A stretch of DNA of 64,000 nucleotides from an uncultured archaeon (GTDB lineage: Archaea; Asgardarchaeota; Thorarchaeia; Thorarchaeales; Thorarchaeaceae): contig CAZLEV010000002.1 in assembly GCA_964558645.1 (NCBI GenBank), forward strand, positions 1 to 64,000. Direction: 5' to 3'. The notes under the pieces are model-generated. The model searched no databases and was not told the DNA's origin. It was given only the letters and a program-made list of their open reading frames with translations. Below are positions 49,325 through 55,504 of the stretch, piece by piece; the stretch's first letter is position 1, and the number at the start of each line of letters is the position of its first letter. Both the position numbers and the translations under genes were made by a program.

Positions 49325-50887
49325 TTGAAGGTAGGCAGCTCCCACAGAAGATGCAGAGTTTGTGAGAGGAACACAGCGACTCACATGTGCGAAGACTGCG
49401 GCGAGAACTTCTGTCTGGATTGTCTTGAGAGTAAGACCACAGAGTACTATGTCTGCTCGGAGTGCCATCACACTCTAGGAACTCCAGAAGCCGGGGAGCC
49501 CTTCGAGAAGTGTCCCGAATGCGAGTGTGAAGAACTGAGCACTGGAAAAAGGATAGAGGAAATCTGTCCCCGATGTCACTCCTCTAGGATAGTCTCTATA
49601 GATGACAAGAGAAGGAACCTTGGAAAGAAGCTACGAGAGTCCATCATGACACTCCAGTACGGTCATCTCAAGCTGAGGGAGTTCAACAGCAAGCTCACTG
49701 CTTCGAAGAGACTACTGGTTTCCTTGAGGATGGCCAATTTCCTGCATTATCACTGGATTGAAGACAACATCGAGGGAATCCAAGATGAAGCATTGGCCGT
49801 GAAGAAGAGAGTTGTCAACCAAGCAGATATGGTCGGGCGTCAGATGGCTGCCGAGACCAAGGGAATAATCGACCCCAGCACCTGGACTCCCGATCAGTTT
49901 CCATTTATCGAGGGTGTTGCAAACCGAATTGGAGAACTGGGAGAGCATTTCAAGTCTGGTGTTGATGATGCGTTGGATGACTGCGTTGTTCGACTAAACG
50001 AAACGACAACCCAGCTTGAGGGACTTGACTACTATCGGAAGGAATTTGCGGGGTTCTACGAACATGCCGAACTGTCTGTCAATGAGCTTCCTGTCTGCGC
50101 ATTGCCCGAGATTCGAGTTACAGGTAGCGATTTCCTAAAGCATGACAAGGCAACGGGAACACTCTATATAACAAACAAGAGAATTGTGTTCATAGCCGAG
50201 GTGGGAACATTTCGAAAGAAGATGGAAGTCCTCTTCGATTTTCCCCTTGTCTATCTCAACTCCATGGAGGAGGACGGGAGAATCAGAAAGCGTCTGGTTC
50301 TCAAGATGAAACAGGGAGACCTAAAGATATCCTGTGACGAACAGACCGAAGAGGTCCTTCCAGACTATCTCGAGATAGCAAAGAAGTTCGACAGATACAT
50401 GCAGACAGATATGCAGCGGGTAAGGCGCATTGAACAGTCGAGTTTCAACATCAGTGATGTGCGTCTCAAGATAGAGGAACTTGTGTATTCACTCTTGTCT
50501 TCAAGCACTCGGAAACGTGCAGAAGATCTCACTATGAACGAGAGATGCCAAGACAGGTATCACTATCAGAAGCGTCCTGCAGCAGGCTATGGAACCATGA
50601 ATGGGTATGGGTCTCAGCATTTCACCGACCACCTTGAAGACGTTCTCTCTCGTGCATCTCTTGGACATGGAGAGCGACGCGGAGATATTGATCCGCAGGT
50701 ACAACGGCTCAAAAGAGATGCCAGAGACTTGCAGCAAGCAGTTTCACGAACCGTAGACCTATTCAGGAATCGAAGGCTTGTCTCTGAAGATTTTGTGAGA
50801 AGATACAGGAGCCTAATGCTCGACTCCTACAGAACGCGGAAAGAAATAGATGAGGTCATGAAACAGAGATCTGATTCTCTCTGGTGA
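49325..50887 (+). CDS. ESCRT-associated multidomain protein: B-box/Zn fingers, coiled coil, PH/GRAM-like domain, Vps23-type steadiness box
   Basis: Multiple CxxC; GTLYITNKRIVF; C-terminal VDLFRNRRLVSEDFVRRYRSL. Confidence 0.65.
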   Translation: MKVGSSHRRCRVCERNTATHMCEDCGENFCLDCLESKTTEYYVCSECHHTLGTPEAGEPFEKCPECECEELSTGKRIEEICPRCHSSRIVSIDDKRRNLGKKLRESIMTLQYGHLKLREFNSKLTASKRLLVSLRMANFLHYHWIEDNIEGIQDEALAVKKRVVNQADMVGRQMAAETKGIIDPSTWTPDQFPFIEGVANRIGELGEHFKSGVDDALDDCVVRLNETTTQLEGLDYYRKEFAGFYEHAELSVNELPVCALPEIRVTGSDFLKHDKATGTLYITNKRIVFIAEVGTFRKKMEVLFDFPLVYLNSMEEDGRIRKRLVLKMKQGDLKISCDEQTEEVLPDYLEIAKKFDRYMQTDMQRVRRIEQSSFNISDVRLKIEELVYSLLSSSTRKRAEDLTMNERCQDRYHYQKRPAAGYGTMNGYGSQHFTDHLEDVLSRASLGHGERRGDIDPQVQRLKRDARDLQQAVSRTVDLFRNRRLVSEDFVRRYRSLMLDSYRTRKEIDEVMKQRSDSLW

Positions 50888-50888
50888 G

Positions 50889-51503
50889 CTAGACACCTAG
50901 CTCTTGCTCCAGTGATTTGATCTCAGCCTCTAATTCTTCGGATTCTGTCATAGGGGCTTTCTTCGCCTGAGATGTAGCTGCGCCAGCTTCTGCATCTATC
51001 TCAGCCATGGCCGCCGCGAGCTCTTCTGAAGTGACTTCACCAATCTCAGTCGTGTCGAGGGCTTCTGTCGATATACTGGACTCTATCTCAAACTGCTCCA
51101 ACCGACGACCAATCTCATCCACATTTTCCACGACCTTCAGTGTGTCCGTGGTATCACCTAGAAGCCCCAGAATGTCAGCGACTTTCTCTAGTGCAACATT
51201 AGCCTTGGCCGTGGTCTGCGCTCGAGTGATATAGGCCAATATCTTTAGGATTTGAAGACGGGACTTGTCTACAGAGAGAGCAAACCGTCGGAACCGGACC
51301 ATCTCAGTAGCGTAGGTCTTGTACGCATCTGCCCTGCCCTCCTTCCTGGCACGCACAGCTCGAGCCCTGGTATCACGAGCTTCTTTCTCGAGTTTGTTGC
51401 GTTCTCGCGCCAGCTGTTTTGACAAAACTCGAAGCTGGCTTGAAACTTCACCGACATCTGGGCGTTTTTTGCCCCATCTGAAAGCCTTTCGAATTGGACC
51501 CAA
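50889..51503 (-). CDS. ESCRT-III protein, Vps2/24/46-like
   Basis: Basic N-terminal coiled coil (ARKEG..AYKTYATEMVR), acidic C-terminus with MIM1-like ELEAEIKSL. Confidence 0.85.
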   Translation of the reverse strand: MGPIRKAFRWGKKRPDVGEVSSQLRVLSKQLARERNKLEKEARDTRARAVRARKEGRADAYKTYATEMVRFRRFALSVDKSRLQILKILAYITRAQTTAKANVALEKVADILGLLGDTTDTLKVVENVDEIGRRLEQFEIESSISTEALDTTEIGEVTSEELAAAMAEIDAEAGAATSQAKKAPMTESEELEAEIKSLEQELGV

Positions 51504-51663
51504 GAGTTACTCCCTCGTCAATCTTATTGCCGTACATAGATGCAAGGAATGAAGACCGTTTAAACCTTCGTAGAACGAGTGACCAGTTCGATATATGAGG
51601 CAGACGGTAACTGGGAAATACTGAAGTTCTTAACGGAAGACATCTAATCGCGAGTGAGGTTCA

Positions 51664-52872
51664 ATGGTGGATAGAATAGATCAGGGTCTCAAGGCACTAC
51701 TTGACAAGGCAATAGACCTGGACAAGAGAGGTATGGGAAAAGAGGCTTGCCAGTATTATCTGAAGGCTAGCAAAGTGCTGATCAAACTGTCAAACTCGGC
51801 GGCATTGCCCTCTATCAGGAAACACTATCTCAAAAGAGCGCAAGAGTGTGTTGACAGGGTCCGGTATCTCTCCGGCATCAAGAAGAAGTCAGGACCTGTC
51901 CATGGACTCGAAGTACCACCCGAACCCCTTGAGAGAGAAGAGCCAGTTCCTGCTCAAGCCTCTACCGAAGAGAAGGAGATTGACGAGGATACCGTCAGGC
52001 TGCGAGATATGATAGAAGATACAATAGTTTCGGAGCGCCCAGATGTTAGAATGTCAGAGGTCGCAGATCTCGAGGATGCAAAACAGGCAATTGATGACGC
52101 GATTCTTGCGCCCATGAAACATCCCGAGCTGTTCCGTGGAAAGGCGAGACAGCCTTGGAGAGGTATCTTGCTTTATGGTCCTGCGGGATGTGGTAAAACA
52201 CTCATAGCAAAGGCCGTGGCCTCAGAGATTGACGCGACATTCTTCAATGTGTCAGCCGCCAATATAGTAAGCAAATGGCTTGGCGAATCAGAACGATTGG
52301 TAATGACTCTCTTCGAACTGGCACGTAAGAATCCACCCGCAATAATATTCATCGACGAGCTCGATTCTATAGGAGTTTCCAGATCAGGCGAGGATGTTGG
52401 AGGTGAAAGGCGTCTGAAGACGCAGCTGCTGACCGAGTTGCAGGGGCTCGGTAGTCGCGAGGATGAGAGAATCACGGTAATCGGAGCCACAAACCTTCCT
52501 TGGGAGCTCGACTTTGCTCTGCGGTCCAGATTTGAGAAAAGAATCCATGTGCCGTTGCCGGGTCGCGATGCTAGAAAGAAGATCTTTGCCACTCATATGG
52601 AGGAGATAGAGATGGCCCCCAGCGTAGACTTCGCGGAGTTGGCCGATCTGACAGAGGGATACAGCGGACGGGACATCAGTGTTGTGTGTCGAGAGGCGGC
52701 AATGGAACCGATTCGAGAACTCCAAACAAGTGGACGGTTGGATGAGGATGCGGAAATATTCGACCTGAGACCTGTTGAACGTTATGACTTCTTATCAGCT
52801 ATAGAAAACATCAGACCTGCAACATCGCCCGAAGATGTCAAGCGGTATATAGACTGGGCGGAGGGCTCATAG
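51664..52872 (+). CDS. vps4: Vps4 AAA+ ATPase with MIT domain
   Basis: MIT (AIDLD..G..EACQYY), PWRGILLYGPAGCGKT, SKWLGESE, DELD, SRFEKRI. Confidence 0.93.
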   Translation: MVDRIDQGLKALLDKAIDLDKRGMGKEACQYYLKASKVLIKLSNSAALPSIRKHYLKRAQECVDRVRYLSGIKKKSGPVHGLEVPPEPLEREEPVPAQASTEEKEIDEDTVRLRDMIEDTIVSERPDVRMSEVADLEDAKQAIDDAILAPMKHPELFRGKARQPWRGILLYGPAGCGKTLIAKAVASEIDATFFNVSAANIVSKWLGESERLVMTLFELARKNPPAIIFIDELDSIGVSRSGEDVGGERRLKTQLLTELQGLGSREDERITVIGATNLPWELDFALRSRFEKRIHVPLPGRDARKKIFATHMEEIEMAPSVDFAELADLTEGYSGRDISVVCREAAMEPIRELQTSGRLDEDAEIFDLRPVERYDFLSAIENIRPATSPEDVKRYIDWAEGS

Positions 52873-52875
52873 CTG

Positions 52876-53580
52876 ATGAATGTTCGTGAGAGGTCAAAAG
52901 AGAAGAAGAAGACCGTCGAGAAGAAGCGTGAGTCGGAAGAAGAGTCAGAAGAGCAAATTGTGATCAAGACTCCCACGGATCAACAAATACCCGAAGTCAG
53001 TGTCAGAGAGGCTGTGACCGTCACAGAGTCCGAAGAACAGGCTGCTGTACCGCAGGAGCCTGCAAGTGAAGTCGAGGATATCTTGCCGCAGTGGGGGCAT
53101 GCTGAAGACTCGGAGTGGATGTACCAAGTTCCAGATTACGAGGAGGGTAGACAACTCTGGGCAAGAGATTGGACAGACTTCATACTCACATGGATGGAGA
53201 ACCAGAAACTTCATGTCATATCGATCACGACTTTCATAACCGAGAGTCCATTTAGCGAGATTGTTGGCAAGGCGGATGCGTTTGAGATTCTTGGAGATAC
53301 CCTTGTAGAAAAGAACATAGCACAATGGATTGGAGATGAGAAGCGTCAGCTTCGAGTCTACTGGCGGCCTTTGGAGGACTGGGCGGATCATGTCTACCGA
53401 TGGGCACTCGAAACAGGCTTGATGCGTCTCGATGTGAAGTCGATCGTCATCCAACAGGGTAGAGAAGGTTTCGGACGCCTCCCGGAGGGCGACCTTCGCC
53501 GTATCATGGAACTGCTTGTAGAACGCGGCTATGCAAGATGGGTGGACAAGGAGCGCGGCGCTGTTGTGCTGGTTGTATGA
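52876..53580 (+). CDS. vps25: ESCRT-II Vps25-like protein with acidic N-terminal extension
   Basis: W.D.IL and VYWRPLEDWAD.VYRW match the Vps25 pattern; adjacent to vps4. Confidence 0.82.
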   Translation: MNVRERSKEKKKTVEKKRESEEESEEQIVIKTPTDQQIPEVSVREAVTVTESEEQAAVPQEPASEVEDILPQWGHAEDSEWMYQVPDYEEGRQLWARDWTDFILTWMENQKLHVISITTFITESPFSEIVGKADAFEILGDTLVEKNIAQWIGDEKRQLRVYWRPLEDWADHVYRWALETGLMRLDVKSIVIQQGREGFGRLPEGDLRRIMELLVERGYARWVDKERGAVVLVV

Positions 53581-53584
53581 CACG

Positions 53585-54343
53585 CTAGCGATTATGCTTG
53601 CCGTTCGAGTCGACATCTGTCCTTGATCTTAGGCCCGGGAAGTAGTATCTTCCCCCCGTGCTAAATCGGATGTCGGCCACAGCCATGCCAGCCTCCACAA
53701 GACTGGAGAGGACAGTTCGAGCGTGATCTTCAGACCATTTCAACTTCATGATTACCTCCTCAATAGAGACAAATCCTTTGGACGCTGCGAGATTAATCAC
53801 ATCAGCCTGGTCTTGCCGTAGTTCCAAAGGCCTCAATTCGACAACTTTGACGCCTCCGCTCAGTGTTCGAATCCCTGGGATGAGACCGTGCTCTGCAACT
53901 CGATTCACAGCCTCGATCACATCGTTATAGCTGACGGATTTGAGTTCGGGGGTTCGTCGTACAACGTCGACAATCAGCTCTGCCAGCCCCATAAGACCCT
54001 TTGATGCGTTCTCAGTTGCAACGTCAAGCACCGCCAGACCAATGTAGTCATAGTATTCATCCGATGTCATCCCCTGCATGGAAGCAGCAGACTGTTGTGG
54101 TAGAATTCGAAGCAGTCCTGCGGCTTCGGGGAAGCGGGAAACAATGCCCTCACTCTCAAAGAATCCGGTTACATCTCTACCCATCCGACGCATTCTATCA
54201 AGATTCTCTCGGATGTCCATGACAAGAGCCTCTGATTCGCGCTCGTAGGAACGAACATCCACTGCACCCATGTCGAACATCTTCTTGAACTGATCCAGCG
54301 TGGCTATCGACGCGTAGAGCTCAGATTCAACACGATCATCCAT
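53585..54343 (-). CDS. Vps28-N-like domain fused to a Vps22/Vps36 (EAP30) winged-helix domain
   Basis: SELYASIATLDQFKKMFDMG..YER N-terminus; YY..IG..VL, P.EL..DQ..V, WS..A..VL..LV..G, YYFPGL. Confidence 0.75.
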   Translation of the reverse strand: MDDRVESELYASIATLDQFKKMFDMGAVDVRSYERESEALVMDIRENLDRMRRMGRDVTGFFESEGIVSRFPEAAGLLRILPQQSAASMQGMTSDEYYDYIGLAVLDVATENASKGLMGLAELIVDVVRRTPELKSVSYNDVIEAVNRVAEHGLIPGIRTLSGGVKVVELRPLELRQDQADVINLAASKGFVSIEEVIMKLKWSEDHARTVLSSLVEAGMAVADIRFSTGGRYYFPGLRSRTDVDSNGKHNR

Positions 54344-54518
54344 CTCTATTGCTACCTCGCGTTTATACGGTCGACTCTGTACTGGAGTGAGTTGGAAGCA
54401 GCCTCCTTTAAGAGGGAGTATTATTGAGCACCGACTCAAGCACACGCTTCGCGATAGCACAAAGAACATATGTGCAAAACATATCGGAAGGACACGAAAT
54501 CCTGGAGAGGTTGAAGAA

Positions 54519-54683
54519 ATGTCACTACATTGCCATGATATGAAAAAAGGACAAGTCTATGCATGCGAGACCTGTGGCCTTGAAATCAAGATCCTCAGCG
54601 AGTGTACGGAGTGCTGCAACGACGAGGACCAGTGCGGCTGCAGTTTCACCTGTTGCGGTGATGACTTGACGCTGAAGGAATAG
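54519..54683 (+). CDS. Small Cys-rich metal-binding protein, desulforedoxin-like
   Basis: GQVYACETCGLEI...CCG; 10 Cys in 54 aa; GAGG upstream. Confidence 0.75.
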   Translation: MSLHCHDMKKGQVYACETCGLEIKILSECTECCNDEDQCGCSFTCCGDDLTLKE

Positions 54684-54808
54684 AACCGATATCCTTCATC
54701 TGAAATAGGCCGTGGGCCAAAGCCTCGGCCATAACTTTTTTCGCTCCGACTATTGGTGTGTTCATCCCAAGTCCCAAGTTGGAGATTGTGTACAGCAAGT
54801 GCAGCATT

Positions 54809-55504
54809 ATGGCGAAAGGTACCTCGAGTCCGCATATTGGAACGCTAAAAGAGCGCTCACTCCATGCTGGATTGAAGGAATGGTACAAAGAACCGGGCGA
54901 TTGTTTTGAGGCTGAGGTAGATGGATACGTAATTGATATCGCCCGAGAGAATCTGTTGGTAGAGATACAGACCACAGGTTTCTCAGTAATCAAAGCGAAA
55001 CTCCGGGATCTTCTCACCAGACACAATGTGCGTCTCGTCTATCCAGTGATATCAGAGAAGTATATAGTGAAAGAAACGCCTGATGGATCAGAAGTGATCG
55101 AGAAACGTCTCTCACCCAAGAAGGAGAGTTTCCACGACGTCTTCTATGAGATGGTTTACCTTCCGAGACTCATCGAACATCCTCGTTTCAGTATCGATGT
55201 CTTGCAGGTCAGGGCAGAGGAGACTCGCCGACGGGACGGACATGGTAGTTGGAGACGCAGAGGCTGGAGTATCGTTGATACTGAACTAGTGGAAGTAGTA
55301 GATAGGCAGTTGTTTGAGAGCCCATCAGATCTACTGAGGCTTATCCCACAAGACCTGACGAATCCGTTCACCAATGCTGAACTGGCAGAGCGAATCAAGC
55401 GGCCATCTGCTTTGGCAAGGAAGATGACGTATACTCTCAGGAAGATAGGAATCGTGAAGTTAGTGGGTAGACGCGGAAGAGCCCATCTCCATTCCATCAC
55501 CTAG
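54809..55504 (+). CDS. PD-(D/E)xK-like nuclease with C-terminal HTH
   Basis: E.SLH..LK..Y, E..VDGY.IDI, VEIQT. Confidence 0.7.
   Translation: MAKGTSSPHIGTLKERSLHAGLKEWYKEPGDCFEAEVDGYVIDIARENLLVEIQTTGFSVIKAKLRDLLTRHNVRLVYPVISEKYIVKETPDGSEVIEKRLSPKKESFHDVFYEMVYLPRLIEHPRFSIDVLQVRAEETRRRDGHGSWRRRGWSIVDTELVEVVDRQLFESPSDLLRLIPQDLTNPFTNAELAERIKRPSALARKMTYTLRKIGIVKLVGRRGRAHLHSIT

Follow-up and report, generated by a model that had tools for sequence, protein, structure and literature searches.

The region between positions 49325 and 54343 of the window (the whole 64,000-nucleotide stretch of DNA analysed, from an uncultured archaeon of the family Thorarchaeaceae) contains five contiguous ESCRT genes in mixed orientation (strands +,-,+,+,-) and raises the question of whether an ESCRT-I/II module standing without ubiquitin or UEV genes has been rewired. 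The coordinates and strands given in the original prediction were all confirmed, and its domain calls for the five genes proved correct on the basis of Pfam, profile and structure matches. Its suggestion of a new rewiring did not hold: the region is the usual, already published Thorarchaeota ESCRT membrane-remodelling gene cluster, conserved across the sampled members of this lineage, with some of its proteins already examined in two-hybrid assays (PMC9192718, PMC10936438). The gene order TldD-TldD-Znr(+)-IIIA(-)-Vps4(+)-Vps25(+)-Vps28N/Vps22(-)-AspRS is kept in eight of nine other Thorarchaeota genomes (8 genera; one of these eight loci stops at a contig edge within vps4), and in the ninth the cluster is rearranged, still contiguous. 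In the source genome (3.63 Mb; 92.8% complete, 6.3% contamination) an insert of ~1.1 kb (54387-55504), absent from the other sampled Thorarchaeota genomes, lies between vps22 and the AspRS gene.

Hatano et al. (2022, PMC9192718) used ThorAB25_08990 (the steadiness-box, SB, protein), ThorAB25_09020 (Vps25) and ThorAB25_09030 (Vps22) in yeast two-hybrid and reported, across the Asgard proteins covered there, Vps22 self-interaction and contacts between Vps25 and ESCRT-IIIB; they also remarked on the lack of ubiquitin in Thorarchaeota. The Thorarchaeota AB_25 cluster of that study belongs to a different genus and consists of orthologous genes: the supplementary SB, Vps25 and Vps22 sequences align lengthwise with the window proteins, the numbering implies that the ESCRT-III and Vps4 genes lie between _08990 and _09020, and the fusion protein discussed below is labelled simply 'Vps22' (PMC9192718). 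Makarova et al. (2024, PMC10936438) described Znr_CC_PH_SB (cog.011556) and SB-fused Vps22 (cog.002769), which have the same domain architectures as the window proteins; they propose that the former belongs to ESCRT-I, binds membranes through its PH domain and probably goes back to the Asgard ancestor. The cluster, both of its unusual proteins and the missing ubiquitin have all been published, and the window adds no new component.

The first of these proteins is a 520-residue ESCRT-I-like adaptor of the Znr_CC_PH_SB type (49325..50887, + strand), recognised by modelling and profiles, for which a Pfam search returned zero matches along the whole chain, UEV domain included, and nothing useful with the last 81 residues. 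It has 168 homologues, of which the 120 listed are 49-100% identical to it and, where the source is named, mostly labelled Thorarchaeota. The N-terminus carries three CxxC...CxxC zinc ribbons of RING/B-box-like character (residues 10-84; 49352..49576), with matches to the RNF4 RING (E 2.8e-5) and to B-box, FYVE and PHD fingers. Their 12 cysteines (pairs C10/13, 22/25, 30/33, 44/47, 63/66 and 81/84) are conserved across 27 sequences, ten of them invariantly and C10/C13 in at least 90%, and the conservation of C10/C13 supports TTG at 49325 as the start codon rather than the 500-residue database annotation. An AF2 model (mean pLDDT 83) places behind the ribbons a coiled-coil bundle (residues 92-246; 49598..50062) of three long helices (92-136, 144-177 and 189-246; pLDDT mostly 88-97) and then a GLUE/GRAM-type PH domain (residues 256-353; 50090..50383) with a beta-sandwich of seven strands and a C-terminal helix. 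Foldseek matches the latter to the Vps36 PH domain (2cay_A, E 4.6e-4), the EAP45 GLUE domain (2hth_B, 2dx5_A) and the GRAM-type PH domains of MTMR2 and Lam6. The chain ends in a Vps23-type steadiness-box helical hairpin (residues 457-519; 50693..50881), modelled as helices 457-481 and 487-519 with pLDDT 93-97, whose profile matches the yeast Vps23 ESCRT-I core (2p22_A, E 3.9e-4; 2f66_A, E 1.4e-3; 2caz_A) and TSG101 (6vme_B). This Zn/PH protein is neither a Thorarchaeota-specific substitute nor a general replacement for UEV-Vps23: of 101 Asgard genomes sampled, 68 encode it, most of them alongside both ubiquitin and Vps28, and several families have UEV as well.

The second is a Vps28N-Vps22 fusion protein of 252 residues (53585..54343, - strand), in which an EAP30 match (E 9.5e-14) follows a Vps28-type N-domain. 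Its start codon at 54343 is correct, the equivalent ATG opening all eight Thorarchaeota orthologues examined, and identities to the 120 homologues listed run from 61 to 92%, those with a named source being nearly all labelled Thorarchaeota. In BLASTP searches residues 1-80 (54104..54343) match the canonical Vps28 N-terminal headpiece domains of two other Asgard families with E-values of 9e-14 and 4e-13, as against only 0.1 for the Vps22 N-domains of the same two families' genomes; matches to yeast Vps28 N (profile E 0.06-0.09) and Pfam VPS28 (E 0.19) are weak. The Vps22 N-domains of other Asgard archaea match one another (E 1e-14), and this canonical type is absent from the fusion. Residues 94-238 (53630..54064) comprise a Vps22-type helix and tandem winged-helix domains, matching human SNF8/Vps22 by profile (E 1.5e-20) and 3cuq_A by Foldseek (E 3e-9), with concordant AF2 secondary structure. 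The Vps28 C-terminal four-helix bundle, the part in contact with ESCRT-II, is absent, the chain running on into the Vps22 winged helices, and tblastn of the genome with an Asgard Vps28-C and a stand-alone Vps28-C-like ORF gave nothing better than E 0.7, leaving the N-domain of the fusion as the sole Vps28-like sequence in the genome. These alignments show that a genuine Vps28 N-terminal headpiece replaces the usual Vps22 N-helical domain on the winged-helix pair. This refines the published description of an SB-fused Vps22 (PMC10936438), in that the Thorarchaeota 'SB' specifically corresponds to the Vps28 N-domain (E ~1e-13), whereas in the two families compared the Vps22 N-domain is only remotely Vps28N-like. 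An in-frame deletion between neighbouring vps28 and vps22 genes is the most likely source of the fusion, a simple origin suggested by the gene order in other Asgard archaea: at least 19 sampled genomes from outside the Thorarchaeota have vps28 immediately ahead of a co-oriented vps22.

Between these two lie the more conventional genes. The ESCRT-III protein (50889..51503, - strand; Pfam Snf7, E 1.9e-8) is tentatively assigned to the Vps2/24/46 (ESCRT-IIIA) class from its best PDB matches, CHMP2A, CHMP1B and CHMP1A (E 3e-4 to 9e-3), and its gene adjoins the Znr gene in all nine sampled Thorarchaeota genomes. The Vps4 AAA ATPase (51664..52872, + strand) combines MIT, AAA (E 6e-39) and Vps4_C (E 4e-6) domains with AAA_lid_3, the MIT match (E 8e-6, 26.3 bits) falling slightly below the 30-bit Pfam cut-off. 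Beginning 3 nt past vps4, the ESCRT-II gene vps25 (52876..53580, + strand) encodes a charged N-terminal tail of ~75 residues ahead of a PF05871 domain (residues 95-183; E 3e-12, 47 bits against a cut-off of 27), with orthologues of 37-46% identity at eight of nine sampled Thorarchaeota loci, the ninth ending at a contig boundary within vps4. The statement that a second, Snf7-class ESCRT-III is missing is true of the window and fails for the genome: an ESCRT-IIIB of the Snf7/Vps20-32-60 class is encoded on contig C18 (5182-5907), with matches to Heimdall ESCRT-IIIB (E 1.3e-11) and Snf7. The minimal chain originally drawn from the window omits this gene and a second Vps22 paralogue of 770 residues (P0246) on contig C1, which is found in part of the Thorarchaeota genera and whose N-terminal region, in an atlas search, retrieves only its own Thorarchaeota cluster. 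In eukaryotes Vps25 contacts Snf7-class ESCRT-III, and by analogy the Vps2/24/46-class protein of the cluster would not be expected to be its direct partner. An EAP30 match on contig C16 is a false lead, being the winged helix of MCM. An SB-type HMM further retrieved a 112-aa ORF on C13 (E 3e-5), the C-terminal tail of an ABC ATPase and a 75-aa ORF on C1; these are weak matches among unrelated genes, alike in nothing more than a hairpin motif, G-(I/L)-x-x-E-(F/Y), and were rejected as ESCRT parts.

We consider it probable, at roughly 80%, that the chromosomal ESCRT cluster common to the sampled Thorarchaeota is a reduced ESCRT-I/II module working without ubiquitin, fusion and steadiness-box docking included. 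Searches for ubiquitin came back empty for this genome and for all 76 sampled family members (many of them >95% complete), as against 204 of 301 Asgard genomes phylum-wide, and the same search finds the gene in nearly every genome of other large Asgard families. By Pfam, UEV was not found here or in 13 family members (36 of 101 Asgard genomes have it), nor was canonical VPS28 (0 of 13 against 68 of 101), the VPS28 and Vps23_core models being so insensitive here that the genome search came back empty and missed even the Vps28N domain. No E2 (UQ_con) was found in the whole 3.63-Mb genome, and two UEV-Vps23 tblastn queries gave no match better than E 0.7. A single ThiF/E1-like gene lies on contig C7, outside the window. 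The original prediction that ubiquitin, UEV and E2 are lacking from the window thus extends to the genome, and for ubiquitin and UEV to the sampled family members; with the assembly 92.8% complete, the absences of ubiquitin, UEV, E2 and Vps28 are to be read as 'not found'. That ubiquitin and UEV-Vps23 are present after all, missed through divergence or incomplete assemblies in an ordinary ubiquitin-coupled Asgard ESCRT system, would agree with this incompleteness, with the 6.3% contamination and with the limited sensitivity of the Pfam UEV model. We regard it as highly improbable given that a search which succeeds in other large families found nothing in 76 sampled family genomes or in this one, the parallel failure to find UEV, VPS28 and UQ_con, and the statement of the same ubiquitin absence in two independent papers, among them Hatano et al. 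(2022, PMC9192718).

The docking itself is supported by a complex prediction, proposed with the original prediction, of the steadiness box with Vps28N: it passes with an ipSAE of 0.82, against 0.00 for the best of 3 controls; 58 of 80 solved complexes attain that mark, as do 2 of 110 mismatched pairs. Three runs share at least 95% of contacts (partner pLDDT at least 77), with a predicted interface between steadiness-box residues 477-506 and Vps28N residues 3-40, although this pass may reflect likeness to, or memorisation by the predictor of, the solved Vps23-Vps28 cores (2CAZ, 2F66, 2P22). The steadiness box might instead self-associate or pair with other SB-like small proteins, and Vps28N-Vps22 might homodimerise via its own hairpin, making the two neighbours rather than direct partners. 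The B-box/coiled-coil layout does suggest TRIM-like self-assembly, the SB-type HMM finds more such hairpins (the C13 ORF and the ABC ATPase tail), and Thorarchaeota Vps22 self-interaction is reported from two-hybrid (Hatano et al. 2022, PMC9192718). We nevertheless think this unlikely in view of the heterodimer score and its concordant contacts, the linkage of the Znr and Vps28N-Vps22 genes across nine sampled Thorarchaeota genomes (one locus ending within vps4), and the weakness and unrelated contexts of the additional SB-like matches. Equally doubtful, in our estimation, is that a covalent tag is still read, in the form of prokaryote-type SAMP/Urm1-like beta-grasp modifiers that mark cargo, are activated by the single ThiF/E1-like enzyme and are recognised by the Zn fingers or the GLUE-like PH domain. 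Ubiquitin is bound in this way by the NZF finger of Vps36 and by the GLUE domain of EAP45, whose structure with ubiquitin (2dx5, 2hth) is among the closest compact structural matches to the PH domain. The seven ThiS/MoaD-family genes and one ThiF gene of this genome would supply the components; however, most archaea have such genes for ordinary sulfur-carrier roles, those of this genome are all located outside the window and away from the cluster, and SAMPs are not known to be linked to ESCRT.

The eukaryotic ESCRT-I headpiece is formed by the Vps23 steadiness box, the Vps28 N-domain and Vps37, and ESCRT-II by Vps22, Vps36 and two copies of Vps25. The Thorarchaeota cluster shares with these a Vps23-type hairpin, a Vps28-type N-domain, a Vps36-GLUE-like PH domain, a Vps22-type winged-helix pair and Vps25, but is without UEV, Vps37, the Vps28 C-domain and ubiquitin; moreover, Vps28N is covalently joined to Vps22, and it is the steadiness-box protein, not a Vps36, that carries the PH domain. 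Ubiquitin-coupled clusters of other Asgard families (e.g. G029, L029; G053, L032) likewise encode Znr_CC_PH(_SB), ESCRT-IIIA/B, Vps4 and Vps22; to these they add ubiquitin, E1/E2-like genes, UEV-Vps23 and a full Vps28, the last at times accompanied by a further Vps28-C ORF. G053 carries a fusion of the Znr_CC_PH module with a winged-helix pair, which gives a Vps36-like layout.

In the ubiquitin-independent module that we favour, the steadiness box would dock on Vps28N as Vps23 does on Vps28 in the eukaryotic headpiece, as the complex model predicts, tethering a putative membrane- or cargo-sensing PH/Zn module straight to ESCRT-II. By analogy and from published two-hybrid contacts, the winged helices of the fusion would bind Vps25, which would in turn nucleate the Snf7-class ESCRT-IIIB of contig C18; ESCRT-IIIA from the cluster would enter the polymer, Vps4 would remodel it, and the PH domain, again by analogy, would meet the membrane. 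P0246 and the SB-like small ORFs could alter the stoichiometry. More tentatively, and at rather less than even odds, we suggest that the in-frame deletion between vps28 and vps22 hard-wired an ESCRT-I head to ESCRT-II during or after the loss of ubiquitin, UEV-Vps23 and Vps28-C, making [Znr-CC-PH-SB]:[Vps28N-Vps22]:Vps25 a natural ubiquitin-independent ESCRT-I/II supercomplex whose GLUE-like PH/Zn module reads lipid or untagged cargo, with the Thorarchaeota-specific 770-residue Vps22 paralogue perhaps serving as a Vps36-like second stalk subunit.

The increments over the published picture are small: direct sequence evidence for the N-domain of Thorarchaeota 'Vps22' as a true Vps28 N-domain, a simple deletion-fusion origin to which the neighbouring vps28 and vps22 genes of other Asgard archaea point, a passing complex model of the contact between steadiness box and Vps28N, and a second Vps22 paralogue in part of the Thorarchaeota genera. 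Thorarchaeota present a natural test case for Asgard ESCRT-I/II function without ubiquitin, which is relevant to the question whether the coupling to ubiquitin is ancestral or was added later en route to eukaryotes.

The ORF listing and Pfam searches bear out the order and orientation originally claimed for the five contiguous ESCRT genes at 49325-54343. The first, starting at 49325 on the plus strand, codes for a Pfam-unassigned 520-aa protein with the Znr_CC_PH_SB architecture (Zn-ribbon, coiled-coil, PH, steadiness box or SB; asCOG cog.011556); it is followed by a minus-strand gene for a Snf7-family ESCRT-III protein (Pfam E 1.9e-8) whose closest solved matches are CHMP2A and CHMP1B, a plus-strand vps4 coding for MIT, AAA and Vps4_C domains, a plus-strand vps25 3 nt further on (PF05871, E 3e-12), and a minus-strand gene, its start codon at 54343, for an EAP30 protein (Pfam E 9.5e-14) with a Vps28N-Vps22 layout. 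Across nine further genomes from this family, spread over eight genera, the arrangement TldD-TldD-Znr(+)-ESCRT-III(-)-Vps4(+)-Vps25(+)-Vps22(-)-AspRS recurs, within contig reach, in eight; in the ninth the cluster is rearranged and still contiguous. At a locus from one Thorarchaeota-family genus (L024, G055:C21:164000-179000), the Vps22, Vps25 and Vps4 genes lie on one flank of both TldD genes and those for Znr_CC_PH_SB and ESCRT-IIIA (the Vps2/24/46 class) on the opposite flank, the whole set falling within ~9 kb. The window also carries an insert (54387-55504), absent from the sampled family genomes, that separates vps22 from the AspRS gene. In it are a short Cys-rich ORF (54387-54683) and a gene for a 248-aa protein (54758-55504) without a Pfam family; this protein may have a nuclease-like D...E motif and shows a C-terminal HTH-like region.

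Listed homologues of the 520-aa protein and of the 252-aa Vps28N-Vps22 protein show 49-100% identity, and those with a named source are, among the matches listed, mostly from 'Candidatus Thorarchaeota archaeon'. The Thorarchaeota-family cluster is real and was correctly read in the original prediction, and it is already known. As AB_25 orthologues (ThorAB25_08990 (SB), _09020 (Vps25) and _09030 (Vps22)) have been cloned and two-hybrid-tested (Hatano 2022, PMC9192718), and the domain architectures of both unusual proteins appear in Makarova 2024 (PMC10936438), a 'possibly rewired' module cannot be presented as new. The N-terminal tail of Vps25 (window 52876-53100; ~75 residues, K/E/S-rich and apparently disordered) has a similar counterpart in the AB_25 orthologue (Hatano supplement, PMC9192718).

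For the 520-aa protein, the TTG at 49325 is favored over the 500-aa database form because Cys10 and Cys13 are conserved, being kept by 90% or more of the 27 homologues aligned; the database copy begins at Met21, losing window 49325-49384 and with it the first conserved CxxC (C10/C13). An AF2 model based on an alignment of 27 sequences (mean pLDDT 83) predicts Zn ribbons with twelve conserved Cys (residues 9-91), three long helices (92-246), a sandwich of seven strands followed by a C-terminal helix (256-353), a disordered linker (~396-453) and a helical hairpin (457-519, pLDDT 93-97). In Foldseek the sandwich finds compact matches in the Vps36 PH (2cay), the EAP45 GLUE (2hth, 2dx5) and GRAM-type PH domains, and the family profile recovers the yeast Vps23 ESCRT-I core (2p22_A, E 3.9e-4, residues 418-513) along with 2f66_A, 2caz_A and TSG101. 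The Zn module (window 49352-49576) is RING/B-box-like in profile searches (RNF4 RING, E 2.8e-5); it occurs in a genome without detectable E2 or ubiquitin, and its placement ahead of the coiled coil is reminiscent of TRIM proteins. An SB-like hairpin motif, G-(I/L)-x-x-E-(F/Y), is present at three further loci, namely a 112-aa coiled-coil ORF with a weak GvpG match (L034:3998-4336 on contig C13; motif E 3e-5), the C-terminal tail of an ABC-transporter ATPase (L035:2001-2888, contig C1) and a 75-aa ORF (L036:2998-3225, C1), whose gene neighborhoods have no relation to ESCRT.

The Znr_CC_PH_SB family has been described as likely to belong to ESCRT-I and as probably dating back to the Asgard ancestor (Makarova 2024, PMC10936438). 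We found it in 68/101 sampled Asgard genomes, its carriers including families with ubiquitin and Vps28, several of them also with UEV, often within one cluster; it is probably a retained ancestral part and not, in general, a replacement for UEV-Vps23. In another Asgard family (L032:11401-13206 in genome G053), Znr-CC-PH is fused to a Vps22-type winged-helix pair in a 601-aa protein of Vps36-like layout, and the same genome carries adjacent genes for UEV-Vps23, Vps28 and Vps22.

For the Vps28N-Vps22 gene, the longest ORF would open at 54469, but 8/8 examined family orthologues begin at the ATG matching 54343; this shared ATG therefore gives the 252-aa length and sustains the original end coordinate. 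Residues 89-240 match human SNF8/Vps22 (profile, E 1.5e-20), and the Vps22 part recovers 3cuq_A in Foldseek (E 3e-9). Residues 1-100 match canonical Vps28 N-domains of two further Asgard families (E 9e-14 and 4e-13), as against no match (E 0.1) to the Vps22 N-domains of the same genomes, which match each other at E 1e-14; a weak profile match to yeast Vps28 N is in agreement. The domain call is upheld by these matches, and in this family Vps28N stands in for the N-helical domain typical of Vps22. Elsewhere in the source genome neither a further Vps28-like sequence nor a Vps28 C-domain was found. By their coordinates, vps28 immediately precedes vps22 on one strand in 19 or more of the genomes sampled from other families. 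If the stretch between two such genes were deleted in frame, the fusion gene would result, and we infer such an origin.

The window makes up positions 1-64000 of contig C2 in a source genome of 3.63 Mb (37 contigs, 92.8% complete). Pfam searches of this genome found no ubiquitin, UEV or E2 (UQ_con, sought in this genome alone), in line with the lack claimed for the window, and VPS28 was likewise not found. Within the family, ubiquitin is found in 0/76 genomes versus 204/301 in the phylum sample, UEV in 0/13 versus 36/101, and VPS28 in 0/13 versus 68/101; the phylum-wide searches served as positive controls, with ubiquitin in nearly every genome of other large families. Elsewhere the genome encodes one ThiF and seven ThiS/MoaD genes. 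Thorarchaeota 'seemingly lack true ubiquitin homologues' (Hatano 2022, PMC9192718), and a 2023 preprint reports UEV-Vps23 missing from Loki- and Thorarchaeia.

The claimed absence of a second, Snf7-class ESCRT-III holds within the window but not in the genome, where a stand-alone ESCRT-IIIB (Vps20/32/60, Snf7 class) at C18:5182-5907 (L008:5182-5907) matches Heimdall ESCRT-IIIB (9ftl, E 1.3e-11) and Snf7. Its gene is flanked by inositol monophosphatase and HAD hydrolase genes, away from the ESCRT cluster. Furthermore, C1:10175-12487 (L006:4176-6488) encodes P0246, a second ESCRT-II-like paralogue of 770 aa that combines a coiled coil and a CarboxypepD_reg Ig-like domain (residues 473-541) with a complete canonical Vps22 at its C-terminus (residues 538-770; helical domain and two winged helices). 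Comparison with the Vps22 proteins of other Asgard archaea gives E 1e-30 to 1e-22; P0246 has full-length orthologues in 7/13 sampled family genomes and may be a Vps36-like partner. With this paralogue, and ESCRT-IIIB on C18, encoded elsewhere, the ESCRT chain is therefore not the minimal one originally proposed.

Complex prediction with separate alignments for Vps28N (residues 1-100) and the steadiness-box region (residues 440-520) scored 0.82 against 0.00 for the best of three controls, a mark reached by 58/80 solved complexes and 2/110 mismatched pairs. Contacts were at least 95% concordant across three runs, with partner pLDDT of at least 77, and the predicted interface joins Vps28N residues 3-40 to residues 477-506 of the steadiness-box protein. 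The model thus favors the originally proposed contact, although a solved structure, the Vps23-Vps28 headpiece, has the same pairing, so that the pass may show likeness only. In eukaryotes, Vps25 contacts the IIIB class of ESCRT-III. The same contact is reported in the two-hybrid data of Hatano 2022 (PMC9192718). We propose that the steadiness box of the 520-aa protein would dock on Vps28N as Vps23 does on Vps28; on the model of the eukaryotic complexes and of published two-hybrid results, the Vps22 winged helices would engage Vps25, Vps25 would engage ESCRT-IIIB, and ESCRT-IIIA and Vps4 would act thereafter. The genome also carries two genes for FtsZ and one tubulin-like gene, so division need not rely chiefly on ESCRT.
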